Below are positions 1-23,478 of a DNA stretch of 28,721 bases, piece after piece. The position numbers and the translations under genes were made by a program. The notes under the pieces are model-generated. The model searched no databases. It saw only the letters and a program-made list of their open reading frames with translations, and was not told the origin of the DNA. The DNA lies in the IMG/VR virus record IMGVR_UViG_3300014656_000100, positions 1 through 28,721 of that record. One strand, given 5' to 3'. Positions within the stretch are counted from its first letter, which is position 1. Every line of letters begins with the position of its first letter. The DNA is from a virus (Duplodnaviria; Caudoviricetes).

Positions 1-29
1 ATGCGGAAAAAGGATAGGAGGTAAATAAA

Positions 30-335
30 ATGGAGCAATCAGATATAAGGGCGTGGATTGAGGATAATGCTAGGTATAATGAAGTGCTACTCAGGCTAAC
101 CTCTGAGGAACTAGACCACGTAGCTATGTGTATGCATCATATATATCGGTGGTATCACGAAGGTTATCCTCTCGGCAACTTCCTTACCGCAATAGTTCAG
201 GATAAGTTTACCGAGGCTTGCTTTAGAGCAGATGACATAAACAGGAAGGCACTATACCTTTATGCCTTATTCCTGGCTAACAAGATAGGCTATGATTACA
301 GAAAGAAAGCTAATCCTGCTGGGGTAATGAAGTAG
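30..335 (+). CDS. hypothetical phage protein (cassette cargo 1)
   Basis: 101-aa ORF with GGAGG RBS upstream; its stop codon lies inside repeat copy 1. Confidence 0.75.
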   Translation: MEQSDIRAWIEDNARYNEVLLRLTSEELDHVAMCMHHIYRWYHEGYPLGNFLTAIVQDKFTEACFRADDINRKALYLYALFLANKIGYDYRKKANPAGVMK

Positions 336-380
336 AGAGTGATATAGAGCTATGAAGAAGTATCAGATAAGGGGGGGATT

Positions 381-545
381 ATGACAAAGCAGGAATTGAT
401 AGATAAGATAGCAAGGGAGATATTTGTAACTCCTGACCAAGTTATGCGAATGATTGAGATTCTTGAGAGAAACGGATGGAAATCTCCAGAAGAAGTTATG
501 CAAGGGAAAGAGATAATAAGAAAGGCATTTCGTTTCCCAAAGTAG
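381..545 (+). CDS. small hypothetical protein, 54 aa (MTKQELIDKIAREIF...RFPK), cassette cargo 2
   Basis: Translated by hand (below the track cutoff); G-rich RBS; fills the gap between repeats 1 and 2 exactly, with its stop inside repeat 2. Confidence 0.65.
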   Translation: MTKQELIDKIAREIFVTPDQVMRMIEILERNGWKSPEEVMQGKEIIRKAFRFPK

Positions 546-555
546 AGAGTGAACT

Positions 556-1017
556 ATGAAGAAGTATCAGATATATGCTGACCTGCCCTGGATAGGGATA
601 TTAGATGGCGACCCAAGAGCAGTTGCCTTGTATAGACGACATTATAGCTGTCGCAATCCTGAAATAGACTATGTGAGATATGGCTTCTCTGGCAAAGGGG
701 AGTCCATGGTATTGCTTACATCGGATTGTCTTGCTTTGTGGTGTTGGCGGAAAGTAGCAAGTGAAGGAATATATTGTTCAGTGTTCCATAATGAGAGTAG
801 TTTACTTTCAAGTGAATTGATAAGAGAGGCAGACAAATTAGCTTGGCAAAGATGGGAAGATAACCGTCATTTTACTCACGTTAATCCCAGAGAAGTCAAG
901 GGCGATGGCAAATGCTTTAAGGCAGCTGGTTGGCATAAGCTGAAAGAACGCACTAAGAAATCACACCTGATAATACTTGAGATATTTCGGGGCAATGAAG
1001 TAGAGAGTGAGCTATGA
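556..1017 (+). CDS. conserved phage protein, possibly Mom-like/GNAT-fold DNA-modifying enzyme (cassette cargo 3)
   Basis: Motifs DGDPRAVALYRRHYS, CSVFHNE, SSELIREA and GKCFKAAGW resemble Mom-related phage proteins; both termini (MKKYQIYAD, GNEVESEL) come from the repeats. Function is inferred. Confidence 0.55.
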   Translation: MKKYQIYADLPWIGILDGDPRAVALYRRHYSCRNPEIDYVRYGFSGKGESMVLLTSDCLALWCWRKVASEGIYCSVFHNESSLLSSELIREADKLAWQRWEDNRHFTHVNPREVKGDGKCFKAAGWHKLKERTKKSHLIILEIFRGNEVESEL

Positions 1018-1056
1018 AGAAGTACCAGATATATGCTGACCAAGTAAGGAGAAGTA

Positions 1057-1401
1057 ATGCTACACATTTATCGATGTGAAAATCCCGTTCGTACTCGTGC
1101 TATGTGCCCATATCATAAGCATCAATGCTATGGTGAGCGTCAAGCCTTTTATGACACAACTCGTATTTTCTTTGATTGCGGAACATTTGTTGATTATGGT
1201 TACGGCTACTATGAACCACCAAAGTTGTATAAGAATATCACCATTTTCAAGGACGAAATCGGCTATACTGTATGGGTTCCTCGTGCAGGTTGGGAAATGC
1301 TTGCTCAGGAGGTGCCACTAAAACAGGCACGTAAGATCGCCAAAAGACGATTAAGGCAAGGCGGTTTGATTACTGATAAATCTGTTGGGGCAATGAAGTA
1401 G
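1057..1401 (+). CDS. hypothetical protein (cassette cargo 4)
   Basis: 114-aa ORF with AAGGAG RBS directly after repeat 3; stop inside repeat 4. Confidence 0.65.
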   Translation: MLHIYRCENPVRTRAMCPYHKHQCYGERQAFYDTTRIFFDCGTFVDYGYGYYEPPKLYKNITIFKDEIGYTVWVPRAGWEMLAQEVPLKQARKIAKRRLRQGGLITDKSVGAMK

Positions 1402-1445
1402 ACTCGGATATAGAACTATGAAGAAGTATCAGATAAGGAGGGAAT

Positions 1446-1634
1446 ATGGATTTCTTGGAATTACTAGAGTTAGAGCAAATGTCACCAGATAAATTAGTAG
1501 AATATTGGCGTTGCATAGACGAGGTTGAAGATGATAATGGTGACCCTAGTATTTATAGAACTTGTGAGATTTGTGGTGGCGAGTTCTGGGATGGTGGAAC
1601 ATCTTGCACTTGTGAAGTAGAGAGTGAACTATGA
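1446..1634 (+). CDS. small acidic protein with Cys cluster (cassette cargo 5)
   Basis: AAGGAGG RBS at the end of repeat 4; CEICGG...CTC motif; ends EVESEL from repeat 5. Confidence 0.65.
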   Translation: MDFLELLELEQMSPDKLVEYWRCIDEVEDDNGDPSIYRTCEICGGEFWDGGTSCTCEVESEL

Positions 1635-1816
1635 AGAAGTATCAAATATATGCTGACCGAATAATCCTAGACCTATGCGGTGGCACTGGGGCTTGGAGTT
1701 TGCCTTACAAAGAAGCAGGATATGATGTAAGAAATACTTGGGATAGGATTAAGATGGTAAAGATTGAACGACTTAATGAACTACTCAGGGGAAATGAAAC
1801 CAATGTTGTGAAGTAG
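1631..1816 (+). pseudogene. truncated/chimeric DNA methyltransferase fragment (cassette cargo 6)
   Basis: ILDLCGGTGAWS..Y..AGYDV is a SAM-binding motif-I N-terminus of C5-methyltransferase-like proteins, but the ORF is only 61 aa and lacks catalytic motifs; starts with repeat-derived MKKYQIYAD. Confidence 0.6.
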
Positions 1817-1832
1817 AGCCGGATATAGAGCT

Positions 1833-2126
1833 ATGAAGATAACCGAAAAGCAGTTTGAGGCTCAGGTTAAGGAAGTAGCCAAGATTCGTCAAGTAGACGC
1901 ATACTATCATCCTTTCCTGTCAAAGTGGAGTCCGAAAGGCTACCCAGATATTACTATCGTTAAAGTGCCCCGGCTCATTTTTGCAGAATTAAAATCTGAG
2001 AAGGGCAAAATCTCACCGGAGCAAGCGGAGTGGCTTGAGTTACTGAGGCAATGCAAGACAGTGGAGGCTTATCTTTGGCGAGTTAATGAGGTATCTCTGG
2101 AAGATATAGCGGAGATTTTACATTGA
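1833..2126 (+). CDS. VRR-NUC domain nuclease (putative Holliday junction resolvase)
   Basis: TEKQFEAQV...GYPDITIV...FAELKSEKGKISPEQAEWL matches the PD-(D/E)xK VRR-NUC pattern. Confidence 0.85.
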   Translation: MKITEKQFEAQVKEVAKIRQVDAYYHPFLSKWSPKGYPDITIVKVPRLIFAELKSEKGKISPEQAEWLELLRQCKTVEAYLWRVNEVSLEDIAEILH

Positions 2127-2140
2127 ACTGGAGGTAGAGA

Positions 2141-2320
2141 ATGTCAGGATTCGTGTGTGAAAGGTGCAAGAGAGAGTCGCAGGTTTCATTTGTGTGCAGA
2201 GAGTGTCATCGGTCGGTCTGCAATAGGTGCATTGTGTTGAGAGATATGACACAGCTTTGTAAAGACTGCAACAACAGGCTTAAAGACGGAGTAGAGGTGA
2301 ACGAGCCAGCTATGGCGTGA
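2141..2320 (+). CDS. 59-aa Cys-rich protein with four CxxC pairs (putative double zinc finger)
   Basis: Hand translation MSGFVCERCKRESQVSFVCRECHRSVCNRCIVLRDMTQLCKDCNNRL...; GGAGG RBS. Confidence 0.7.
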   Translation: MSGFVCERCKRESQVSFVCRECHRSVCNRCIVLRDMTQLCKDCNNRLKDGVEVNEPAMA

Positions 2321-2322
2321 TA

Positions 2323-2445
2323 TTATGAAAACAGCCGGCCGCATTTAATACACCGATAACGCTGGATCTTGTTTCTCTTCTTCCAGGAGAACCCGGCTTT
2401 AGTTATCTTATCAGACTTACATTCAGGACAGTGGTTATTTTTCAT
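2323..2445 (-). CDS. 40-aa stand-alone zinc ribbon resembling the IS1 InsA N-terminal finger
   Basis: Hand translation MKNNHCPECKSDKITKAGFSWKKRNKIQRYRCIKCGRLFS; CP.C.S....K.G......QRYRC..CGR.F pattern. Confidence 0.65.
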   Translation of the reverse strand: MKNNHCPECKSDKITKAGFSWKKRNKIQRYRCIKCGRLFS

Positions 2446-2516
2446 ATTCTTTATTCCCTTTATCATCGTCTTACCTTGCCTTCTATCTGATTGCGGTCCT
2501 TACTACTGTTAAGGTG

Positions 2517-2729
2517 CTACCTAATAAGTTTTAGAGAGTCTTTAAGTGTAGGACAAGGTATAAATGAGGTTCTATCTCCCCACTCCTGAGACCCGTCATC
2601 ATCCCATTGTATAAAAGCAGTTCCATCTCCATCATAACCTTCTGGCAAAAATCCTTCTCTGGGATAACCATTCGAGTATTGCCATTTCGATATAACGTGC
2701 ATACCTCGTTTCAGTTTTCTACTTTTCAT
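2517..2729 (-). CDS. hypothetical protein, ~70 aa
   Basis: Track ORF 2517-2825; the ATG at 2729 (MKSRKLKRG) has a GGAG RBS and avoids overlap with the upstream gene. Confidence 0.55.
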   Translation of the reverse strand: MKSRKLKRGMHVISKWQYSNGYPREGFLPEGYDGDGTAFIQWDDDGSQEWGDRTSFIPCPTLKDSLKLIR

Positions 2730-2787
2730 CTTACTACTCCGCTCACTACTACCCGCCACGGCGACTGACGGGCAGTTGGTCAATGGA

Positions 2788-3207
2788 TTAGCTTGCTTTA
2801 ACAAAGGGTTTATCCCATCTCCCAATTTCTAAATGTAACCAGTAATTAACATCAAAATAATCTGCCTGAGGGTCTGAGTTATTCCAGTTGTCACGGCTAG
2901 CTATTTTATAAGCGTTTGCCATACACTCCCAAGCTTCTTTAGTGAGATATGCTCCATTGTTTACGTTCTCATCATTTGGCCTTTGAAATCGATATTGATT
3001 GAGCTGTGCATATCCCCTGATAGGATTCCCATTGCAATCCTTATCCTTAGCAAATGCCTCAAAAGGTGCTGTCATTAGAGTAACGTTTAATGCTTGTCCC
3101 CCAGAGAATCGCTCAATTCTAGTTGACCATTGGCAATCAGGATATTGCCTTGTTAATTCTTGTTTAACCTCTTTCGCTATTAGTTTTATATCCTTGTATT
3201 CTCTCAT
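2788..3207 (-). CDS. LPD29-like protein (large polyvalent protein-associated domain)
   Basis: AKEVKQEL...YPDCQWS.R..RFSGGQAL.V N-terminus and NSDPQADYFDVNYW C-terminal motif; AGGAG RBS. Confidence 0.7.
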   Translation of the reverse strand: MREYKDIKLIAKEVKQELTRQYPDCQWSTRIERFSGGQALNVTLMTAPFEAFAKDKDCNGNPIRGYAQLNQYRFQRPNDENVNNGAYLTKEAWECMANAYKIASRDNWNNSDPQADYFDVNYWLHLEIGRWDKPFVKAS

Positions 3208-3319
3208 TCCCTTTTCTCCTATCCCTCAGCCTGGCTTACTAGCTCAGGTCTTATGAGTTTACCTGCTAATCCCTTGCGTTTGCCGAGGCTTGCTATTCCC
3301 CGGCAAGTAGCTAGGGCGT

Positions 3320-3571
3320 TTAGCTTTGTTCCTTACTCATTTCGTATAGGATAGCCCGTAACATTGACCTCATACCCTCTTCATAAGCCTTTGTCTTTAA
3401 TTCTCCGTGAAAGTGTCTTTGTTCGGCGTCTATTGTTCGAGTAAATTTGAAGTCCTCCTCTTCCCCTATGAAGTCTACATTGTCCATGAGTGCCTTAGCC
3501 GATGGGCTTTCTGTATGTGATTGAATCTCGGCATTTCCCTTTTCCTCTATCTTCCTCATAAGTTCTAACAT
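3320..3571 (-). CDS. hypothetical protein
   Basis: 83-aa ORF with AAGGAG/AAGG RBS; first gene of the minus-strand operon. Confidence 0.65.
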   Translation of the reverse strand: MLELMRKIEEKGNAEIQSHTESPSAKALMDNVDFIGEEEDFKFTRTIDAEQRHFHGELKTKAYEEGMRSMLRAILYEMSKEQS

Positions 3572-3605
3572 CTTTCCTTCTCCTTTTTATTCTTTACCTG
3601 CATAC

Positions 3606-3635
3606 ATACTAACATACTCATAATACACACTGCAA
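3606..3635 (-). promoter_or_regulatory. putative sigma70-type promoter for the minus-strand operon
   Basis: Minus strand TTGCAG-18 nt-TAGTAT with extended -10 TG; about 35 nt upstream of the 3571 start. Confidence 0.4.
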
Positions 3636-3744
3636 TAGCTCAAGTGTTCTAGTTTACATGTTATCGCCCACTTTTACACGGAATGAGGTGAATCTTGAGA
3701 CTAAATAAATATTTTGAGGCTAGTATTAGTGCGAACCACCCCGC

Positions 3745-3773
3745 TTGACACAAACCCTTATCTGTGCTATCTA
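3745..3773 (+). promoter_or_regulatory. putative sigma70-type promoter upstream of the terminase small subunit
   Basis: TTGACA (3745-3750), 17 nt, TATCTA with extended TG; divergent from the minus-strand promoter. Confidence 0.5.
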
Positions 3774-3788
3774 TTATATATTATATAT

Positions 3789-4259
3789 ATGAATAATACC
3801 AAAAGACCCATCCCTAGAAAACTGAACAACGGTATGATTACTGCCCTTTCAGAATATATCCGCAAGGGCAACTACGCTGTCACGGCCTGTAATCTGGTGG
3901 GAATTGATGAGAAAACACTCTGGAATTGGGTTCAACAAGGTGAGGCTGACAATTTATTAGGCGTGGATTCTTTGTATTCTCATCTAATCCAATCTATAAA
4001 AAAAGCTGAGGCTGAGGCTGAGGCTAAATTGGTAGAGGTTGTGCGTGAGTCGGCAGAGATTAAAAGGGAATGGATACCGGCTATCACATTCTTAGAGCGC
4101 AGGCATCCAGACAGGTGGGGACGCAAGGACAGGACGAGGGTAGACATAACTGAGACCAAGCGGATACAGATAACACACGTAGATGTGGTATTGAACGAGG
4201 CAGGCCAAACTCCGATGATAGAGGGTCACGCAGTAGAATTATTAGAGGAAGGTAAATGA
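3789..4259 (+). CDS. terS: probable terminase small subunit (HTH DNA-packaging protein)
   Basis: N-terminal HTH (IRKGNYAVTACNLVGIDEKTLWNW), helical AEAEAEA stretch and W...FLERRHPDRWGRKD motif typical of TerS-like proteins. ATG 3789 preferred over TTG 3714, which would run through the promoter. Confidence 0.65.
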   Translation: MNNTKRPIPRKLNNGMITALSEYIRKGNYAVTACNLVGIDEKTLWNWVQQGEADNLLGVDSLYSHLIQSIKKAEAEAEAKLVEVVRESAEIKREWIPAITFLERRHPDRWGRKDRTRVDITETKRIQITHVDVVLNEAGQTPMIEGHAVELLEEGK

Positions 4260-4309
4260 CATATATATGTGAGGTTAAGGAAGATGCCGAGAATTGAGGA
4301 TTTGATATT

Positions 4310-4353
4310 TCTGGCTATTATCTTATTGATATCTGGCTATTATCTTATTGATA
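4310..4353 (+). repeat. perfect 22-bp tandem duplication TCTGGCTATTATCTTATTGATA x2
   Basis: Units at 4310-4331 and 4332-4353 read directly. Confidence 0.9.
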
Positions 4354-4501
4354 GGGGAGCAAGGTATTGACTGGGAATATTATGTATCCTGTGACCGCTA
4401 TTGGAGAGTATGGGTCAAGCTAAACAGAAATTGATAGATAAGAATAAGGGGAGGGGAAGGGTTTTGATACCTATCTTTTCTTTCTATATGAACCTACTCA
4501 G

Positions 4502-4532
4502 TGTCCAACCTAATTAGCTTTGTCCAACCTAA
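4502..4532 (+). repeat. 12-bp direct repeat TGTCCAACCTAA x2
   Basis: Copies at 4502-4513 and 4521-4532, immediately before the RBS of the 4544 ORF. Confidence 0.8.
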
Positions 4533-4543
4533 AGGAGTAAAAC

Positions 4544-4843
4544 ATGCCGTTAAGTAAGGAAAGGGATAAGGAACGAAAGAGGTTAGAGCGTTCCCTAAAG
4601 AGGAGAGCTTTGGAGCTAAAGGTTGGGGCTATCATGTCCTCGGCCAATGTCCGAGCTATGCGAGCAGCCGGGATAACTCCTGGATATGTGGAGGATGAGT
4701 CAGGCTCGGTAGCATCTCGTGTATTTTATGCTTTACTTCGAGACAGGGACGCTATCAAGGCTCACTTGTCTTGGCTTCAGAACGATTTGAGGATGGGGAG
4801 GATTATCTTAAATGGACAATATGGAAAGCAGAACAAGGAATAG
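4544..4843 (+). CDS. hypothetical protein with basic N-terminus
   Basis: 99-aa ORF with AAGGAG RBS. Confidence 0.7.
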   Translation: MPLSKERDKERKRLERSLKRRALELKVGAIMSSANVRAMRAAGITPGYVEDESGSVASRVFYALLRDRDAIKAHLSWLQNDLRMGRIILNGQYGKQNKE

Positions 4844-5059
4844 TTTGACATAACAAATATAGTTCGAAGCATACCAGGCACGAATGAGGAATATGGACAG
4901 TAAGGCACTTTATATAGAGGGGTTGAAAGTAGACAACTGTCATAGCGATAAACGTAATATGATTGCCAGCTGTCCAAGGGGTAGGTGCGTAAATCGGATT
5001 GTGACTGTGGTATGTATATGTAGGTAAACTTTTTATAATATAGAAAAAGGGGGTAAAGT

Positions 5060-5248
5060 ATGGACATAATGAATGTAGCGAAGGATGATGTAGCAATAGA
5101 GCAACTTTGCACCATCATACAGCAGCTTGAAAAACTTCTTGATATTGCGAGAGAGAACAAAGGAAAGGTTAGACCAATCATATCTAGTGGTGAGATAGAG
5201 TTGCTTAAAGACCATCTTGACTTAGTAATCAAATACAGCAAAGTCTAG
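5060..5248 (+). CDS. hypothetical protein
   Basis: 62-aa ORF with AAGGGGG RBS; bracketed by a 15-bp repeat TAATATAGAAAAAGG (5036-5050, 5267-5281). Confidence 0.6.
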   Translation: MDIMNVAKDDVAIEQLCTIIQQLEKLLDIARENKGKVRPIISSGEIELLKDHLDLVIKYSKV

Positions 5249-5288
5249 TCTCCGTAATTTTTTAATTAATATAGAAAAAGGAAGGTTT

Positions 5289-5954
5289 ATGAAAACTGAG
5301 CACATTGTCAAGAGAGTCTTAAGGTACGCAATAAACAATTCTCCTATTAGGTTTGATTACAGGATAAATAAATATTGGGTCAATCCTGCTCAGGATGATG
5401 CCAAGTTATGGTATAAGTTCATAGGTTTCATTCCAGATGGTAAGGTATTAGACATTGGTTGTGGTGATAGGCCATTTCCATCCGCCACTTTTTTAGTTGA
5501 CAAGAAAGTAATAAAAACTACAAAGCCTTTTTGTCTGGCAGATATTGAGGCATTGCCATTTGCAGACAAGGAGTTTGACTTTGTTTTTTGCTCTCATGTT
5601 TTGGAGCATACTCTTAACCCATTGAAAGCGTGCAGGGAATTGATGAGAGTTGGTAAGAGGGGTTATATTGAGACTCCGAGGATTAGCATTGATGCTCTAT
5701 TTGCGTGGGATGATAGTAACCACAATTGGTTAGTTCACAATTCAGGTAATACATTATTCTTCTTCCCGTTGACTGATAGTTTAAGAGAGGGTATCAATAG
5801 TACTGCTTGGCGAGATGTGTTATCCAGTTTCTGGAGGCATCCGTTAGCTGAGGCTTTTTATAAGAATCCTGAAGTTTTCAATGTTATGTTCAACTGGGAA
5901 GGCAAGTTCAATGCGTTTGTATTTTATAAAGATGGCAGATGCCTGAGCAATTAA
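5289..5954 (+). CDS. class I SAM-dependent methyltransferase (Methyltransf_11-like)
   Basis: VLDIGCG motif I, ADIEALPFADKEFDFVFCSHVLEH and ELMRVGKRGYIETP. Confidence 0.9.
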   Translation: MKTEHIVKRVLRYAINNSPIRFDYRINKYWVNPAQDDAKLWYKFIGFIPDGKVLDIGCGDRPFPSATFLVDKKVIKTTKPFCLADIEALPFADKEFDFVFCSHVLEHTLNPLKACRELMRVGKRGYIETPRISIDALFAWDDSNHNWLVHNSGNTLFFFPLTDSLREGINSTAWRDVLSSFWRHPLAEAFYKNPEVFNVMFNWEGKFNAFVFYKDGRCLSN

Positions 5955-8190: not shown

Positions 8191-8378
8191 ATAGTAACAA
8201 TATTGAGATGTATTTTTCTGATACGACTGATTTAGATGCGGTGAGGTGTACTGAATGTGGAAGTATTGACTTTGATTACACAGAAACAAGGAAGTTTTGT
8301 GTACGCTGTGGTTTGGTTGCTAAGAAATCACTGTATAGTACAGCAGGTACAGAGGTAGAGTATGACAACTGGAACTAA
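8187..8378 (+). CDS. small zinc-ribbon protein (TFIIB-type ribbon pattern)
   Basis: CTECGS...FCVRCGLV; ATGA-coupled to the upstream gene and overlaps the terL start. Confidence 0.6.
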   Translation: MNSNNIEMYFSDTTDLDAVRCTECGSIDFDYTETRKFCVRCGLVAKKSLYSTAGTEVEYDNWN

Positions 8379-10647
8379 AGTAAAGCCTTTCAGGGAAATA
8401 ACTCCTGATGGGAAGCTGACACTAAATATGCACCCTGGACAGTCAAGGGTATGGAAGTCTCGCAAAAGATATATTGATATGCAGGCTGGTTCACAGGGTG
8501 GCAAGACGTGTTTCGGGCCTCACTGGTTGGATAGAGAAATAAGAACCTGCGGGCCTGGCGATTATCTGATAGGCACGGCTACCTTTCCTTTACTTGATAG
8601 GAAGTTACTTCCAGAGTTTCTGTATGTATTTGAATATCTATTACGCTATGGGACTTATAACGATAACAAGAAGGTCTTTACTTTCTTTAATGAGAAAACA
8701 GTCAAGAATAAGAGCGATTATATTCTGTTCCCCAACGCAGATGTAGATACCAAGATATTTATTGGCTCTGCTCAGAATCCAGAATCTATGGAATCCGCTA
8801 CTGTTAAGGCTATATGGCTAGACGAGTGTGGAATGAAAATGTTCAAGAGAGAAACATGGGAAGCTGTTGAACGGCGTGGTCTGATAAACAAAGCAAGGAT
8901 TCTTTTTACAACTACACTTTATTGCTTAGGTTGGTTCAAGACAGAAATATATGACCGCTGGGTTAATGGCGACCCTGATATAGATGTTATCCAGTTTGAC
9001 TCTATTGAGAATCCTGCCTTTCCTCTTGATGAATACCAGAGGATGCAAAAGAGTATGCCTGGCTGGAAGTTTAATATGATGCACAGGGGGCGATTTGACA
9101 AACCTACTGGGCTTATCTATGATGCCTTTGACTCGGCAAACGATGTGGTTGAGCCGTTTGAAATACCCTCTAGTTGGCCGAGATATGTAGGACACGACTT
9201 CGGGCCAGTTAATACTGTTGCCTTATGGAAGGCTTATGACCCTATGTCGAGTACAATTTATACTTATCGAGAATATTCAATGGGTCAGTTATCTACATTT
9301 GAACACGTTACGAATTGGATTGAATTATCAAAAAATGAAAGGATAGCAACACGAATGGGTGGTTCACTCACTGAGGATGGTTGGAGGGGTGATTTTACTC
9401 AGGCTGGATGGAGAATTGATAAGCCTTTAGATGGGAATGTATGGTCTGGGATAAACAGGGTTTATGGCTTTGAAAAGCTCCATAAGCACAAGGTATTCAG
9501 GACTTGCAAGAATTATTTAGCTGAGAAGCAAACATTTAGTAGAGAACTTGATGCCAACTATAATCCCATTGAGGATAAAATAGAGGACGCACAAATATAT
9601 CACCTTATGGCTTGTCTGGTGGGTGAGACATTGGTAACTACGGAAGATGGCTTGAAACCGATTAGAGATGTCAGAGTCGGCGATAAAGTCTTAACTAGGC
9701 AGGGATATTACCCTGTTAGAGATAAAATTGAGAAAGTGGCTGATACCATTGAAGCTAAGTTCTCCAATGGTCAAATCTTACAGGGGACTCCAGAACATAA
9801 TGTTTTTGTAAAAGAAAAAGGTTTTCTTCCATTGACAGCCCTGCGATATTATGATACAGTAGAGACATGGAACGAGAAACAGTTATTTACAGGGGCGTCA
9901 AATATCATCGGTATCCGCAAGCAAAGAGGCGGTCTGATAGGATCTACTTCAGGTCTAGCAGGGGTTATCTCCACAGGATTATCTGGCAGGATAACTTTGG
10001 CGCAATACCTAGGGGGTGTTGTATCCACCATAGGGACAATAATTCTGCGAATAATGAACTCTCTAATCTTGAATGTAAAGGACTTGGATTACACATATCA
10101 GAACATCTTGAAAATGGTGCGAGAATATATGACCTTGAACACCTTGCCCGAATACGTCCACTCGCAATTGAGCGATGGAAGCAATGGGCTTCTACTCCAG
10201 AGGGCAAAGCCCACCTTAGTCAGAGAGCAAAGCAAGAATGGGCAGATAAACAACCAATTACCAAGATGTGCCAATTCTGCGGGAAAGAATACCAAACCCT
10301 TGAACCCTCCCACAGTAAGTTCTGTTCACCAGCTTGCAAAACAGCCAACCGGTATGCTTCCCATAAAGATGATGAACAGCGTCAATGCGGAATCTGTGGC
10401 AAATCTTTTCTCATTAACAGATACGCACTTACCAGAACTTGCTCAAGAAAATGCGGTGCGATTTATAAACACAACATGCAAAGACAAAACAACTGTCTAT
10501 GACCTCAATATAGATACAGTCCACGAATACTACGCTAACGGTATCCTCGTTCATAATTCTGAGCGGTATATGATGACTCAGTTCAGACCGTTATCGGTAT
10601 TATCAGATGATGCCGATATAGCACTAGTAGGCACAATTAAGGGATAG
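8362..10647 (+). CDS. terL: terminase large subunit, intein-containing (761-aa precursor, ~446 aa after splicing)
   Basis: Q-motif HPGQ, Walker A AGSQGGKT, Walker B IWLDE, coupling motif TTT, RNase H-like GHDFG; the spliced C-terminus YHLMA|SERY corresponds to the DH..DA.RY motif; directly upstream of the portal. Confidence 0.92.
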   Translation: MTTGTKVKPFREITPDGKLTLNMHPGQSRVWKSRKRYIDMQAGSQGGKTCFGPHWLDREIRTCGPGDYLIGTATFPLLDRKLLPEFLYVFEYLLRYGTYNDNKKVFTFFNEKTVKNKSDYILFPNADVDTKIFIGSAQNPESMESATVKAIWLDECGMKMFKRETWEAVERRGLINKARILFTTTLYCLGWFKTEIYDRWVNGDPDIDVIQFDSIENPAFPLDEYQRMQKSMPGWKFNMMHRGRFDKPTGLIYDAFDSANDVVEPFEIPSSWPRYVGHDFGPVNTVALWKAYDPMSSTIYTYREYSMGQLSTFEHVTNWIELSKNERIATRMGGSLTEDGWRGDFTQAGWRIDKPLDGNVWSGINRVYGFEKLHKHKVFRTCKNYLAEKQTFSRELDANYNPIEDKIEDAQIYHLMACLVGETLVTTEDGLKPIRDVRVGDKVLTRQGYYPVRDKIEKVADTIEAKFSNGQILQGTPEHNVFVKEKGFLPLTALRYYDTVETWNEKQLFTGASNIIGIRKQRGGLIGSTSGLAGVISTGLSGRITLAQYLGGVVSTIGTIILRIMNSLILNVKDLDYTYQNILKMVREYMTLNTLPEYVHSQLSDGSNGLLLQRAKPTLVREQSKNGQINNQLPRCANSAGKNTKPLNPPTVSSVHQLAKQPTGMLPIKMMNSVNAESVANLFSLTDTHLPELAQENAVRFINTTCKDKTTVYDLNIDTVHEYYANGILVHNSERYMMTQFRPLSVLSDDADIALVGTIKG
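9613..10557 (+). mobile_element. intein (315 aa, residues 418-732 of TerL)
   Basis: Block A CLVGETLVTTEDG, block B GTPEHNVF, block F TVYDLNIDTVHEYYANG, block G ILVHN followed by Ser+1. Confidence 0.93.
9867..10502 (+). CDS. HNH homing endonuclease with C-terminal zinc-finger repeats, nested in an alternative frame within the intein
   Basis: YLHRIIW...G.IP.G..IHHRDNNSANNELSNLEC.....H...H HNH motif; CQFCGKEY...FCSPACK and CGICGKSF...TCSRKC fingers; offset from the terL frame is 1505 nt (not a multiple of 3). Confidence 0.88.
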   Translation: MERETVIYRGVKYHRYPQAKRRSDRIYFRSSRGYLHRIIWQDNFGAIPRGCCIHHRDNNSANNELSNLECKGLGLHISEHLENGARIYDLEHLARIRPLAIERWKQWASTPEGKAHLSQRAKQEWADKQPITKMCQFCGKEYQTLEPSHSKFCSPACKTANRYASHKDDEQRQCGICGKSFLINRYALTRTCSRKCGAIYKHNMQRQNNCL

Positions 10648-12969: not shown

Positions 12970-13121
12970 TGCCGTTTGTGAGTTCAGAGTTAAAGAAGTT
13001 ATCTAAAGATATTATTAACAGAGCACTTCAAAAACAAACATTTCAGCCGAGGTCTAATCTTTTAGTAGAAAGGTTGAGGCAGACTTTAAGAACTCAAAAA
13101 CCAAGAGCACCGAGGTTTTAA
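12969..13121 (+). CDS. small basic protein (50 aa)
   Basis: ATG 12969 has a GGAGG RBS and TAATG coupling on both sides; the track start at 12936 is probably too long. Confidence 0.6.
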   Translation: MPFVSSELKKLSKDIINRALQKQTFQPRSNLLVERLRQTLRTQKPRAPRF

Positions 13122-16100
13122 TGGTAGAGACTGTAATAAGAGATTTAACTGGTCAGATTATTGGGAACAGGAGAATTGTTACTAAATCACCTGTTAGTGG
13201 ACGTTATCTTATAAGAGAGACTGACACCGATGAAGTGTATTGGATGGAGCCAGAGGAATTAGAGAAACCTAAAGCCCCTCCAGTAGTAGAACCAGAAGCC
13301 CCCTTTAGATTACCACCAACTGTTCCAGAAGCCAGAGCACTTGAATTCCAAACAATGCCTGCTGGTGGTGGTAGTCGTGGGGTTGAAGGTGGCGAGATAT
13401 ATTATTCTCCCACAGGTGAATCATATTTTGTGCCTACAGGAACACCTTTCAGAACTGGTATTCCCATAACCAGTGAAGCTGACATATCAGGGATAAGAGA
13501 AAGACTGGCAACTATTCCAAGGCGACCTTCTGGAGTGCCAAAAGCTCCAGAGTTTAACCTTCCTGATATTCTAAGGAATGTCTATCCAGAGATGGGTGAA
13601 TCACCAGAAGAAGTTTTTAATGCTGCTCTGACTCTGGCGAGAGACGATCCTGAAGCCTTTGTTGAAGATTTAAGGGCGAAGGGTAGAAACGAATATACGG
13701 AATCTCTGCTGAAGGCTTTAGGGGCTGATGACCAGATGATAGACGATTTATATTCACAACAGGTTTCCATCCCGCAGCAGGCTGTTGTTGAAATTGAAGG
13801 CGTTAGAAAACTGATAATTTATGATACAGCAACTAACAGAGCCTACGATTCAACGGGTAAATGGATTGGTTCATATAATCCTAATAAAAAAGAGTTTACC
13901 CTAAAAGAACAACACAAATTGATAAGTCGTGGCTTGTATGAAAGATTGGGTTATGCCCCTGCTCCTCCAGTAAAGAGTTCTGAGGAAAGAAAAGAAAGGG
14001 TTAAGGCATTTCAATCGTATCGTAAGGCAGGGGGCAAGATGTTTTATGATAAGTGGGAAGCAATGGGTATGCCGGTTAGCCCAGAGGTAGAACCTCCCCC
14101 TATTTCAGATGAAGAGCGTCAGCGAATTATTGATGAGGAAGTTCGCAAGCATATGAATTTGCTCAAAGTATTGGGGGAAGGTTTAACTAAGGTACTACCC
14201 CAGGTAGCAGCTGCTTTTCTTAGTGGTATTCAAGGAGGACAAGGGGCAGTAGATATAGGCTGGGCTGATAGATTTATTGAGGATGCCAAGAAAGATTTAG
14301 ACCAGTTTGCTCAAGAGACATTTGATAAATATGGGGAAACAGGCTTGCCGTTTACAGTTTCAGATATAGCTTATTTACCCCAGAATATAGCTTATTCATT
14401 AATTACAATGGGAGCATTTGCAACTACAGCTGTCCCGATAGGAATGGTTCCATTGCCAGGGGCTAGAGTAGCTGCTTGGTTTCTTGGTTCAGCAGTTTCG
14501 GGAGTGGTGGCTTACCAAATAACTACTTACCAGATAACTAAGGAATACCTTGACCTTAAAGACGAAGAGAATATGAAGGAAACTGGCAGGCACTTAACTC
14601 TGGCTGAGAGACAACAATTATATGATGACTTTGAATCTAAGGCTAGGGCTTATGGGTTATGGGAAGCTTTGCCTGAAGCAATAAGTAATCTTGCTTTTGC
14701 TAGAATATTAACTCTACCGCTAGGTAGAGTAGTGGGCAGAAGTATAGCAACTAAGATTTTAAGTAAATTCGTTGGTATATATGGTGAGGAGTTCTTGACG
14801 GAAACAATAACCCAAAAGGGTCAATCGGCAATAGAAGTTCAGGCAGGACTTAGGGAAGGTAACATAACTTGGGTAGAAGCCTTCAAGGAAGTAGCCCCGC
14901 AGACCTTCCTTCTAACGACAGTGATGGGAGGTCTTGGGCAGAGTGGTATTTCTACTATTAACCGAATTAAGAAGTCCTTAAAAACTGAGATTACAGAAAC
15001 TCATCCTCTTTATAATGAGATTGTCAGCGAATTAGATAAAAGTCAAGGATTACTAGACAGGATAGTTGAGGGAGCGAAAGGGGTAAGAGAACGAGTAAGG
15101 GAAGCACCTGAGCGTGGTGCGATAGAAGGAGTACCTAAAAAACCTTGGCAGATGATAAATAATGAATATATGACAAATAAGGTACGGCAATCTAACCCTG
15201 CTGCTAGTGAATCTGAAATAAGAAGGATAGTAAATACCATTCCCGATAGATTGAGGGAAACTGAACACAAACAACTTGTGCAGGATGCTCTCTCTGAAGG
15301 TAAACCTGTCCCTGCTGAAGTATTAGCAGAATATCCTGATTTAGTTAAAGGAGTACCAGAGGGTAGACCAGAGGTTACAAGAGAGATTAAGATTATTGGT
15401 GAAGATAAAACACTATTAGATAATATCAGACCTGAAATATCCGATTTCTTGAAGGGTATGTCTGATTCAACTGTTTATATTGTGCCTCGTGGAATGAAAG
15501 GATATGGATATGTAGGCAGGGGTATGGAGGATAGACCCTATGATTTATACATAGGCGAAAAGAAGGGGAAGCAAGAATTAAATGAAACTATCCTTCACGA
15601 AGCGATACATCAAATTGAAAGCGGAAGATGGAATACCCCATTAGCCAAACAGATGAGAGAAGAATGGAGAAGTCTGAACTTTGAGGACAAAACTCCGCAG
15701 GAATTAAAAGAATTAGGATTTTTTGACACACTATTTATGTTCAGGAAGTCTACTGCAGATGCAAGGAAGAGGGGTGAATTTCTATCGGAGATGGCGGAGG
15801 AATATATTGTCAGACCCCAAGAATTGGAGAAATCCGCTAAACCCTTGTATGACTTTTTCAATAAATATATTAAAGCCGTTCCTGAAGTTACAATAGAGAA
15901 TATAGCATATCACGGAACATCATCAGTTCATTTAGAGCAAATAAAAAGAGAGGGATTAAAGCCTTGGCGATTAACAAAACAACAATTACCGAAAACTTTA
16001 ACGGAAGTAGGTGATTATGTCTATCTATCGTTGAATCCTGAAACTGCGAAATCTTTTGCATCTGAAATGACAAACCGTTTGAAGATGTCATCTGAATATC

Positions 16101-19100
16101 GTGGTGCTACTGCGGAAGTAGTGCCAATAGATATTTCTACATTGAGGTTGAAGAATGTGGAGAATATCCGCAATTCGCTTCAAGCTAGAGAAGCAATGGA
16201 CTTGGCTCTTAAAGAAGGATATGATGGCATTTCATTTGGTGGGACGAAGGAATTTCCTACGCAGGAGGTTGTAGTAGCAAATTATGAAAAACTAAAAATT
16301 GGTAAACCAGCAATCCCCAAAGAGGTTATACCCCCTGTTACTGAAGCAGTTGAAGCACCTCCAGTAAAACCTGCTGTTGAGATTCCTGGGGTTACTCCTA
16401 TGACTGAGGTTACTCCCACTGGCGAAACAATATCAAGCTCATATATTGAAGCCCCAACTCCAACTGAAGGGGCTACTGCTAGAGTGTTCAGTAGAATACA
16501 AATTGAACCTGCAGAGTCTAATATCAGGGAGAAAATAAGGCGTGGCTGGCACAAGTTCAATTCTAAAATGGTTGATGATTTATTCCCATTAAAGAGGATA
16601 ACCGACCAATTGCGGAAAGGCGGGGTTGATTTATCTATTCAGGAGAATCCTTATCTTTTGGCTAGACTTCTCAGGGGTGTTACCAGCAAAGCTACCACAT
16701 TCCTTGAGTATGGCACATTTGGTAAGCAATTCTGGAAGATGGAGAAGGGCAAAGCAGTTCCCAATTATACAGGGGAGTCACTTGAGAATATTCTCAATGA
16801 AGTAAGAGCCCCTGTTAAATGGCGGGATTTCTCTACTTATCTAACAGCTAGAAGGGCTTTTGAATTAGCTCAACGTGATATAGAAACAGGTATTACACAA
16901 GATGATGCCCTATCAAGTGTTGGCGAGTTAAACGCTAAGTATCCAGAGTTTGATGCGTTGGCTAAAAGAGTCTATAAGTATCAGGATAGCCTTCTGGTCT
17001 ACGCTAATGAGATGGGGCTTATCAGTGGAGACCTTTTAGGAAAACTACGCCAATATGGGAACTATGTTCCATTCTATCGAGTGTTCAATGAACTTGAATC
17101 CAAAGGTGTATTCGGCAAAAAGATGGCTAATATAGCCTCTCCTATCAAGAGAATAAAAGGCTCTGAAAGGGAGATAATCAACCCCTTAGAAAGTATAGTC
17201 AAGAATACTTATGTCTTAATCAGTGCTGCCGACAGGAATCAGGTGGGTATTGCTCTGGCTAATCTAGTTGACCAGAATCCTGAGCTGGCAGATGTATTTG
17301 AGAGAGTAAAAACACCAATGGCAAGAGTAGCTCAGGTTTCAGCCAAAGAGCTTGGTGTTGATATAGAGGGTTTATCAGAAGCTGAAGAAGAGCAGATGGT
17401 TGATATATTCAGACCCTCTTTCTTTGTTAGTGGTGATGAGGTTACTGTTTTAATTGATGGCAAGAAAAATTATTATAGGATTGATGCTGACCTCCGTGAT
17501 GCTTTATTGGCTCTTAACAGAGAATCATTGGGTATGATAGGGAAGATACTTGGTGCTCCTGCCAGATGGTTAAGAGCTGGCGCTACATTAAGTCCTGATT
17601 TTATGTTCCGAAATCCTGCCAGAGACCAAATGACTGCCTTTGCCTATTCCAATTATGGATTTATGCCTGGGATAGATTTTATCAGAGGTATTGCCAGTAT
17701 GATAGGTAAGGGTAATGATTACCAGTTATTCAGGATGTCTGGAGCAGAACATTCTATGTTGGTCTCAATGGACAGGAGTTATTTACGAAAGAGTTTTAAG
17801 GAAATAGTTGAGGGTAGGGATTTCACGGAGTATGTGAAACATCCCTTAGAATTATTCAGAATTATAAGTGAACTTGGTGAAAAGGCAACAAGATTGGGTG
17901 AGTTTAAGAAGGGTATTCAAAGCGGAGCAGTGCCTCTTGAAGCTGGTTATTCAGCAAGGTCTGTAACTCTTGATTTCTCTCAGGCTGGCACGACTGCTCA
18001 GGCTATCAATACCCTTATCGCCTTCTTCAATGCCACTATTCGTGGTTGGGGCAAGATGATTAGTTCATTCAAAGAACATCCCATTAGAACCTCAGCCAAA
18101 GTTTTCGCAGGTATCACACTCCCAAGTTTATTATTATGGGCAGTTAATCACGATGATGAAAGGTGGAGGGAAATACCCCAATGGCAGAAGGATTTATTCT
18201 GGATTGTCTTTGTTGGCGATACCATCTATCGTATCCCCAAGCCATTTGAGCTTGGTATTATCTTCGGCTCAGTCCCCGAAAGATTCCTTGACTGGTTGGT
18301 GGATAAAGACCCAGAACTGATGAAGGATGTTGCCCAAACGCTAATAGAATCGGGTAGTCCTGGTTTTATTCCAACAGCAGGATTACCGATTTTAGAATGG
18401 ATGACCAATTACTCATTCTTTAGAGGAAGCAAGATAGTTCCTGCAAGTCGAGAAGCAATGCCTGCCGAACTCCAATATACTGCCTGGACTAGTGAAGTCT
18501 CCAAAAAACTTGGTGAGCTTCTTAAACTACCTCCAGCAAAAATAGATAATCTTATTTTTGCTTGGACAGGTGGGTTGGGAAGATATGCTACGGATATTAT
18601 GGACGGTATTCTCAAAGGAACTGGTGTCAGCCCTGATATTCCAGAGCCATCTGCCACACTGGCGGATACTCCCGTAATCAAAGCCTTTGTAGTTCGTAAT
18701 CCTTATGGTTCTGCTGGTGAGACAGTTAATGATTTTTATGACATCCTTGAGAAGTATGAGTCTGGTGAGAAGTATCTCAAGGAAATGTTACTCCAAGATA
18801 ACATAGAAAAATTCAATGAGTTCAAAGCATCGCATCCCGAACTCTTATTCTTTGCCGATTTTGACATTAAAGAGTATCAAGAAGCGATTGAAAAGGGGGA
18901 GACACCCAAAGAAGTATTCTATTCCGCATCAGCCAGATACTTACGCAGGGTAGCCAGAGACTTAACTGAAATCCGCAAGAAGCAGGATTTAATCTATCAG
19001 GATGAGAAGATGAGTCCTGAAGAAAAACGTAGGCTGATTGACGAGATGGATTTTCTAAAGACTGATGTAGCCCGCAAGGCTCTGGATTTACTTCTGGGAG

Positions 19101-21893: not shown

Positions 21894-23478
<1,585 letters not shown>

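Follow-up and report, generated by a model that had tools for sequence, protein, structure and literature searches.

The two ends of an MT-A70 methyltransferase gene form a repeat between single-gene cassettes in groundwater phages and probably serve as a homology arm for cassette exchange

The virus record IMGVR_UViG_3300014656_000100 of IMG/VR (Duplodnaviria; Caudoviricetes) forms, in its entirety, the window analysed here: a linear sequence of 28,721 nt that is ~75% complete. Pfam and PHROG scans identified phage proteins in it, including both terminase subunits (small and large) and a capsid protein. Within it, six copies of a junction repeat at positions 316–1839 divide seven small genes. 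The repeat joins the 3′ end of an MT-A70 methyltransferase gene (the tail) to the 5′ end of such a gene (the head), and because this linker flanks dozens of unrelated genes in other phages, it is likely a homology arm for swapping single genes. The reading favoured here, and held to be probable, is that the repeat supplies a 25–55 bp arm for the RecT-type exchange of single-gene cassettes.

The first-pass annotation, made from the letters of the sequence, had described six repeat copies and seven unrelated genes with one gene per interval, which the repeat positions and the map of open reading frames (ORFs) bear out. The core string CTATGAAGAAGTAYCARATA occurs five times in the window, at 350, 554, 1012, 1416, and 1629, always on the plus strand, where shuffled sequences lead one to expect 0.04 occurrences; the sixth copy (1809–1839) consists of the left half, i.e., the tail, and ATGAAG only. 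No further copies were found elsewhere in the 28.7-kb record. The start-to-start distances of 204, 458, 404, 213, and 202 nt agree with the earlier figure of ~200–450 bp, as does the division into a long variant with an additional GATATA (copies 1, 4, and 6) and a short variant (copies 2, 3, and 5). Each interval holds one ORF (381–545, 556–1017, 1057–1401, 1446–1634, and 1631–1816), further ORFs flank the array before (30–335) and after (1833–2126), and the array ORFs that were checked belong to different similarity families. In the repeat frame, the tail reads (S/I)CWGNEV(E/D)S(DI)EL-stop, with its TGA overlapping the ATG of MKKYQI(YAD) as ATGA, and copy 2 runs on to DLPW; the frames, the overlap, and the LPW continuation had been given correctly. 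Per copy, only ~6–12 N-terminal and ~8–13 C-terminal MT-A70 codons are present, and a six-frame search of the record and its twin (see below) with PF05063 returned no match to the MT-A70 core even at E ≤ 1, in line with the original observation. The components of the array are as follows (SD, Shine-Dalgarno sequence):

30–335, plus strand: cargo ORF1, 101 aa, no family; terminates at a TAG inside tail 1
316–369, plus strand: junction 1; long tail (SCWGNEVESDIEL-stop, 316–354) and 18-nt head (ATGAAGAAGTATCAGATA, 352–369), then SD GGGGGGG
352–384, plus strand: mini-ORF MKKYQIRGGL-stop, its TGA overlapping the ORF2 ATG (ATGA)
381–545, plus strand: cargo ORF2, 54 aa; terminates at the TAG of tail 2
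539–591, plus strand: junction 2; short tail and a head extending to MKKYQIYADLPW (degenerate DPPW)
556–1017, plus strand: cargo ORF3, 153 aa; N-terminal fused MT-A70 head, phrog_24928 body (residues 11–145), and C-terminal MT-A70 tail (RGNEVESEL-stop)
988–1041, plus strand: junction 3; short tail and 28-nt head (MKKYQIYAD), then SD AAGGAG
1057–1401, plus strand: cargo ORF4, 114 aa, no family; terminates at the TAG of tail 4
1380–1435, plus strand: junction 4; long tail of the other allele (ICWGNEVDSDIEL-stop; Ser TCG, not AGT) and 18-nt head, SD AGGAGGG
1446–1634, plus strand: cargo ORF5, 62 aa, Cys-rich; terminates in the MT-A70 frame (CEVESEL-stop)
1613–1658, plus strand: junction 5; short tail and 28-nt head (CAA variant)
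1631–1816, plus strand: cargo ORF6, 61 aa; MT-A70 head and the first ~25 residues of a phrog_757-type DNA methyltransferase, then divergent, i.e., a truncated remnant
1809–1838, plus strand: junction 6; long tail only (CCEVEPDIEL-stop), its TGA overlapping the ATGAAG of the VRR-NUC gene; right end of the array
1833–2126, plus strand: VRR-NUC nuclease gene, 97 aa (PF08774, E 5.4e-5; phrog_5702/93); conserved right flank of the array

A twin record, G001 (18,851 nt), is 100% identical to window positions 1–5641 and reaches 4163 nt further upstream, where it carries a RecT-like gene, a Zn-ribbon gene, iteron-like repeats, and a 326-aa ATPase-like gene. A search upstream for additional copies or a recombinase, as had been suggested at the outset, thus revealed the RecT-like gene and a seventh, head-only copy (ATGAAGAAGTATCAGATAAGGGGGGG) after the replication ATPase-like gene. 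This copy is followed by a 56-aa Cys-rich ORF that joins window ORF1 without a repeat between them. The array is thus bounded by a head-only copy on the left and a tail-only copy on the right, and looks as though it had taken the slot of a single former MT-A70 gene.

The tail and the head are genuine MT-A70 termini, and co-occurring phages are rich in intact genes with these nucleotides. Two further viral contigs, G005 and G007, contain an intact MT-A70 gene (PF05063, 98.8 bits; 176 aa in G005) with the sequence MEPMTDYHTIYADPPW...GWDCWGNEVESGIEL-stop, in which the PF05063 model covers YHTIYADPPW to WGNE; the predicted alignment of the repeat peptides to the termini of this family was thereby obtained. 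At the nucleotide level, the 3′ end of the G005 gene (TGCTGGGGCAACGAAGTAGAGAGTGGTATAGAACTATGAAGG) matches the window tail, and its TGA overlaps the ATGAAG of the next gene. In a search for MT-A70 relatives, 44 of the 80 kept loci were inspected; six of these 44 end in WGNEVES(D/G)IEL, and N-termini such as MKKYQIIYADPPW (L072) and KKYQIIYADP (L051) were observed. Intact MT-A70 genes of related viral and metagenome contigs open with MKKYQIIYADPPW, share the C-terminus GWDCWGNEVES(D/G)IEL-stop, have a TGA that overlaps the following ATG, and are nearly identical to the repeat in their nucleotides, and remoter members of the family retain both KKY.(I/T)IYADPPW and GWDCWGNEV-stop, which indicates that derivation ran from gene to linker. 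The exact head nucleotides also open 16 intact or open MT-A70 genes in a metagenome scan, and six further viral contigs, G005 and G007 among them, present the head pattern as a mini-ORF of 11–13 codons (MKKYQIYAE...) followed by an SD and then an unrelated gene. Directly abutting tandem pairs of MT-A70 genes exist as well (L055 and L044), one with the ATGA overlap, and provide a natural source for the tail-to-head junction.

Variation among the tails is also consistent with this origin. Read in the MT-A70 frame, codons 3–7 of 34 long tails that do not belong to MT-A70 genes exhibit 20 synonymous and 13 non-synonymous changes, five of the changes being switches between the serine codons AGT and TCG; the GATATA and ATA indels are in frame. 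These per-codon counts are limited to codons 3–7 because the left-most codons are contaminated by the variable tail boundary; when all seven codons were included, a codon-position test did not reach significance (32/23/19, p = 0.17). The window itself holds two tail alleles, GAG AGT and GAC TCG, both of which end intact genes (L122 and L133), and the GAC TCG allele of junction 4 is the end of the intact L133 gene. As most tails are no longer translated in this frame, such variation is best explained if different functional MT-A70 alleles repeatedly gave rise to the tails or converted them.

The linker is found throughout the community, in distinct phage lineages and with differing neighbours. 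The metagenome scan covered 123 of an estimated ~250 stretches; once these had been pooled with the viral records and contained duplicates removed, 123 sequences with 145 head occurrences remained, excluding the window. These comprise 56 tail-plus-head junctions (from 12 contig-name, i.e., assembly, prefixes), 29 head-only cases with an MT-A70 extension or SD, 16 starts of intact or open MT-A70 genes, and 44 ambiguous or chance matches. The credible cases thus number 101 in 79 contigs, and 76 of them precede non-MT-A70 ORFs that span 67 families. A Pfam match was obtained for 20 of 138 representative flanking ORFs, including MT-A70, N6_N4_Mtase, HNH, DUF1643, DUF5131, DUF4326, PAPS reductase, and helix-turn-helix families. 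Between consecutive junctions, a single gene is present in 18 of 23 intervals. The occurrence of intact MT-A70 genes as cassettes within such arrays, named beforehand as an expectation, was observed in L133, L122, and G005.

Different cargo or gene order between near-identical repeats, likewise anticipated, was encountered repeatedly. Among the 14 cargo families comparable on the same side, the neighbours differ in nine; the five families with the same neighbours all come from near-identical contig pairs. An identical gene order in all relatives was not seen. For example, the same linkers flank a protein-level homologue of ORF2 in L129, where it lies between other genes, and the Cys-rich ORF has a different next gene in L159. 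Homologues of ORF1 occur in other contexts in G004/G006 (53% at the amino acid level) and L157 (85% at the nucleotide level), and in G004 a DnaC-like gene precedes. A nucleotide alignment of G001 and L129 covers the linkers alone (91.5% over 71 nt and 100% over 35 nt), with the homologous cargo left unaligned. A breakpoint search among the fetched contigs returned eight high-scoring segment pairs of ≥150 nt at ≥93% identity, too few for statistics, and yielded one cassette that is 96.5–97% identical in L124, L162, and L227 under three different versions of the upstream linker, namely a tail with SD, a degenerate tail with head, and a tail with a 26-nt head and SD. The 3′ joints of this cassette differ too, two having a tail and one the gene's own C-terminus. 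Other carrier phages have 0–4 proteins in common with the window's phage. In IMG/VR, the short-tail junction pattern matched only the twin contig. L015, which is 58% identical at the upstream ATPase gene, was considered as an informative relative and set aside; it has no repeat and different downstream genes.

The earlier statement that the cargo includes DNA-modification genes holds for a single gene of the array, ORF6, which is a truncated methyltransferase remnant. Pfam recognizes neither ORF6 nor its 204-aa homologue in L149, and the methyltransferase call is therefore based on PHROGs and pairwise motifs: ORF6 is identical to the L149 protein at 31 of 35 residues, and the latter matches phrog_757 at 1.5e-27 and has motif I and ASPPC in common with a PF00145-positive protein. 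In L149 (4440–5054, minus strand), the methyltransferase is of full length, with an MKKYQIIYAD head fused to RVILDLCGGTG..., a fusion showing that the head can be translated within a functional-looking foreign gene. A radical-SAM ORF in L142 (3999–4991, plus strand; phrog_9298) has, in frame and before its likely true start, the upstream sequence ...DCWGNEVESDM, which corresponds to the MT-A70 tail; another linker and a phrog_757 methyltransferase follow it.

A candidate enzyme for the exchange is encoded ~2 kb upstream of the array, where the twin contig carries a putative RecT-family gene for a protein of 418 aa (L013:893–2149). This protein matches PF03837 with 23.6 bits (E 4.2e-5; cut-off 24) and bet_lambda with 26.8 bits (E 4.2e-6), far below the cut-off of the latter, and the PHROG families of single-strand annealing proteins (SSAPs) match weakly over the same residues. 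Among the matches listed, PF03837 was detected in 89 of 120 homologues (42–76% identity). A PDB sequence search with the RecT-like protein gave no match.

From these elements, a route can be proposed in which the junction first arises where two MT-A70 genes abut via the ATGA stop/start overlap. A head-cargo-tail segment would then possess homology of 18–36 nt on its left and 9–45 nt on its right to any linker and to the ends of any intact MT-A70 gene. During co-infection, such a segment could recombine with an intact MT-A70 gene or a linker by lambda-Red-like annealing; at an MT-A70 gene, the methyltransferase core would be replaced or the cargo inserted beside it. Unequal exchange between linkers would expand, shrink, or reorder arrays, with cassettes being exchanged, deleted, or duplicated. 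The three-frame stop and restart (described below) would make most products viable and almost any insertion expressible, and we propose that scars persist because these signals make insertions expressible. Rad52-like phage recombinases recombine short and diverged homology, according to De Paepe et al. (2014; PMC3945230). We infer the recombination itself, and the tail-to-head junction may well have been kept as a recombination adaptor, as was inferred in the first-pass annotation.

Several points weigh against homology-driven exchange. The RecT call is placed just below the Pfam cut-off, and its gene lies on the twin contig and not in the window. The run data consist of contigs assembled at k = 31, which break at every repeat, and no recombination event was seen directly in them; moreover, contigs that do cross a 45–75 nt repeat of hyper-abundance in the sample could be chimeric. 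Apparent "joints" between repeat copies, whose sides measure 18–36 nt, are probably linkers of other genomes and were given no weight. Conservation is far higher in the linkers than in the cargo, a difference that selection on expression could also explain. Head breakpoints cluster at few positions (after CAGATA, GCTGA, and GCTGACC), suggesting few founder events and not many independent ones. The 145 pattern matches include the 44 that are ambiguous or due to chance, and simple calling of ORFs, with BLAST clusters formed at E < 1e-5, underlies the family and neighbour counts.

The linker could instead be mainly an expression device that stops an upstream ORF whatever its frame, loads ribosomes anew on a short MKKYQI... 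leader ORF, and passes them to the next SD and start codon, recombination being a by-product; we consider this rather unlikely. The tail offers stops in all frames (GAA GTA ... CTA TGA; AAG TAG; AGT AGA GAG TGA), all three of which are used by upstream ORFs (21, 19, and 13 of 53), and its final TGA overlaps the ATG that opens the short ORF. In raw counts, uncorrected for chance, 18 of 70 junctions have a mini-ORF whose stop forms ATGA with the start codon of the cargo, and in 41 of 70 the two lie within 8 nt. An SD follows the head in most copies, and RNA folding shows the six junctions to be no more structured than shuffled sequences (z +0.17 to +1.40), as would be expected of initiation regions. 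The conservation of linkers where cargo is not conserved points in the same direction. However, many gene boundaries in the same arrays lack a linker (G001 4180/4193; L133 4902–7037), tail-only or head-only junctions look functional (L124, G004, and G005), the breakpoints vary in position, and the variation tracks MT-A70 codons and not a fixed RNA or DNA motif. No sigma-70-type promoter lies wholly within the repeat in a consensus scan, which may not represent the host's promoter type; promoter-like sites number 7 in 2.5 kb versus 5.4 expected, and one of them (minus strand, 387–359) overlaps the end of junction 1. The promoter/terminator scan and RNA folds likewise gave no stem-loop terminator wholly within the repeat, and Rfam had no match in window 1–2600 at E ≤ 1. 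The arrays might also be passive debris of a tandem methyltransferase island that decayed by insertions and deletions, the scars being neutral and the neighbours reflecting ordinary mosaicism. Their location in methyltransferase-rich regions between replication and packaging genes, the truncated remnant ORF6, and the variable lengths of the remnants would fit such a history, yet it appears quite improbable: neutral scars should decay, whereas the linkers are 90–100% identical where cargo does not align and in phages sharing 0–4 proteins, a 97%-identical cassette stands in three linker contexts, and 18 of the 23 intervals between junctions contain one gene each.

Sequencing depth bears on whether short-read assemblers fused unrelated fragments at the abundant repeat, in which case the arrays and their apparent shuffling would be spurious. 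When contig depth is summed, the linker bins of four groundwater runs lie far above the cargo (13,877 versus 10–70 in run X1); within the same runs, the linker exceeds the cargo 100–1000-fold in depth. The loose ends on the left side of the tail spell ...FAR.K.EGWD, which is intact MT-A70. Exact-match Logan unitigs of the window cargo are unequal in depth, at 10.3 (ORF3/ORF4) versus 17.5–17.8 (ORF2 and ORF7) in X1 and 5.3–5.9 versus 10.2 in X2; in both runs, ORF3/ORF4 (window 556–1411) reach ~55–58% of ORF2/ORF7 (386–569 and 1729–2400). This inequality may mean that the ORF3 and ORF4 cassettes are missing or replaced in some members of the population, and is to be read either as population heterogeneity in cassette content or as a warning sign of misassembly. 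Window stretches without contig cover in some runs (e.g., 1521–1600) were not interpreted, and runs with a share below 0.2 (X4–X10) were left out of habitat claims. Such depths, and the breakage of the k = 31 contigs at every copy, would fit an assembly artefact, but two separate records carry the identical 5641-nt stretch including the whole array, the same junction contexts recur across assembly prefixes (G005/G007/L196/L210 and G004/G006), and the repeat is shorter than typical reads. Many contigs end just past a junction, which suggests that assemblers break there rather than bridge; we consider an artefact very unlikely. Most improbable of all is that a dedicated enzyme, such as an integron-type integrase or a homing or structure-specific nuclease (VRR-NUC or HNH), recognizes the junction. 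The VRR-NUC gene does adjoin the array, HNH genes are cargo or neighbours in G003, L133, and L149, and the head contains a 9-nt palindrome, TATCAGATA; however, Pfam and PHROGs identified no integrase or tyrosine/serine recombinase among the 30 ORFs of the window and seven upstream ORFs, the folded junctions include no hairpin comparable to attC, and the outer boundaries of the linker vary, unlike those of a fixed recombination site. As the record is ~75% complete, the absence of an integrase from the whole genome is not proven.

The array would represent a form of homology-linker-mediated modular shuffling. By analogy, the functionally closest known system would be the promoter early stem-loop (PeSL) elements of T4-type phages, which are reportedly the subject of a further paper on mobile regulatory cassettes by Comeau and colleagues from 2014. 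As described by Arbiol et al., PeSLs are conserved intergenic elements of ~100 bp with an early promoter, a stem-loop terminator, and an SD and start codon at their end; they flank ORFans, single and non-essential, in hyperplastic regions, and inverse PCR showed that they mediate insertion, deletion, or replacement by homologous recombination without an integrase. PeSLs also form mini-circles, and the authors compared them with integrons (Arbiol et al., 2010; PMC2839356). The window linker, too, is conserved and has an SD and start codon at its end, and the single ORFs beside it vary between relatives. Unlike PeSLs, it is a relic of a coding gene (MT-A70 3′ and 5′ ends) with three-frame stops and a leader ORF, it has no detected sigma-70-type promoter, terminator, or stable fold, and it spans unrelated phage lineages of a groundwater community, whereas PeSLs remain within one phage genus. 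The likeness to integrons, drawn already in the first-pass annotation, stands as regards the form of the array, i.e., tandem same-orientation single-gene cassettes, a repeated site bounding each, diverse cargo, and variable array content. It is a likeness by analogy only, since there is no integrase and no folded attC-like site: the scanned ORFs and junction folds gave no IntI, no attI or folded attC, and no evidence of site-specific recombination, and the MT-A70 repeat has variable boundaries, as homology-driven exchange would give.

Comparable arrays are known from Rhs and contact-dependent inhibition (CDI) orphan tips, which result from displacement at conserved gene ends. For arrays of orphan effector-immunity modules of the type VI secretion system (T6SS), one study describes growth by recombination anchored in a conserved gene, with end remnants repeated before displaced modules (PMC5361080). 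In the T6SS, Rhs, and CDI cases, the conserved gene is functionally tied to its cargo (toxin and immunity). The arrays described here, by contrast, are carried by phages and retain remnants of both ends of the methyltransferase gene, to which their cargo has no relation. In recombineering, arms of tens of bases around a cassette suffice to replace a target gene. The present system resembles lambda-Red/RecT recombination in that a putative RecT-family gene lies upstream and in that SSAPs tolerate short, diverged homology (PMC3945230). It differs in that recombineering is a laboratory method and relaxed recombination a general mechanism of mosaicism, whereas here a natural, reusable pair of arms would be at work. 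The open-access literature searched contained no prior description of MT-A70-derived linkers, nor of a natural reusable arm pair derived from the termini of one gene.

A long-standing question about the small accessory genes of phages is whether they are exchanged through homologous "linkers" or joined by random illegitimate events that selection filters. Here, the origin of the linker can be read directly: it consists of both ends of one conserved gene, is common to unrelated phages of one habitat, and flanks at least 67 gene families. It is conceivable, though held with some doubt, that groundwater phages possess an integrase-free platform for gene capture in which MT-A70 ends function as universal homology arms; a head-cargo-tail segment or mini-circle would land in the MT-A70 gene or linker of any co-infecting phage, and the newcomer would be expressible at once. 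On that view, the linker would be a community-wide currency of "natural recombineering" and would exemplify the linker model of phage modular evolution in concrete form. If the exchange itself is real, gene-trading phages would be predictable as those with a matching methyltransferase, the mostly ORFan cargo would represent a pool of candidate host-interaction or counter-defence genes, and a ready-made design would be available for inserting genes into such phages.

Other features of this phage were noted in the course of the analysis. Direct repeats with CGTTGT(T/A)AGCGTTGA-like units cluster on the twin contig (L013:2860–2990), in the part that precedes the window and just before the 326-aa ATPase-like gene, and resemble an iteron-type replication origin. 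The large terminase ORF (TerL; 8362–10647, plus strand; 761 aa) matches terminase profiles over residues 19–406 and Hint/intein profiles over ~408–732, a pattern pointing to an intein within TerL. A giant ORF of 2556 aa (13121–20791, plus strand; phrog_9854) situated between the packaging and capsid genes contains an LPD38 ("large polyvalent protein") domain (E 2e-47). A free-standing ORF (22025–22555, plus strand) immediately upstream of the capsid gene (22666–23478) matches LAGLIDADG_3 and phrog_5046 ("HNH endonuclease") and is likely a homing endonuclease. Finally, a block on the opposite strand (2323–3571, minus strand) separates the array from the terminase genes and includes an LPD29-domain protein (2788–3207) and a 47-aa InsA-like Zn-ribbon ORF (2323–2466).

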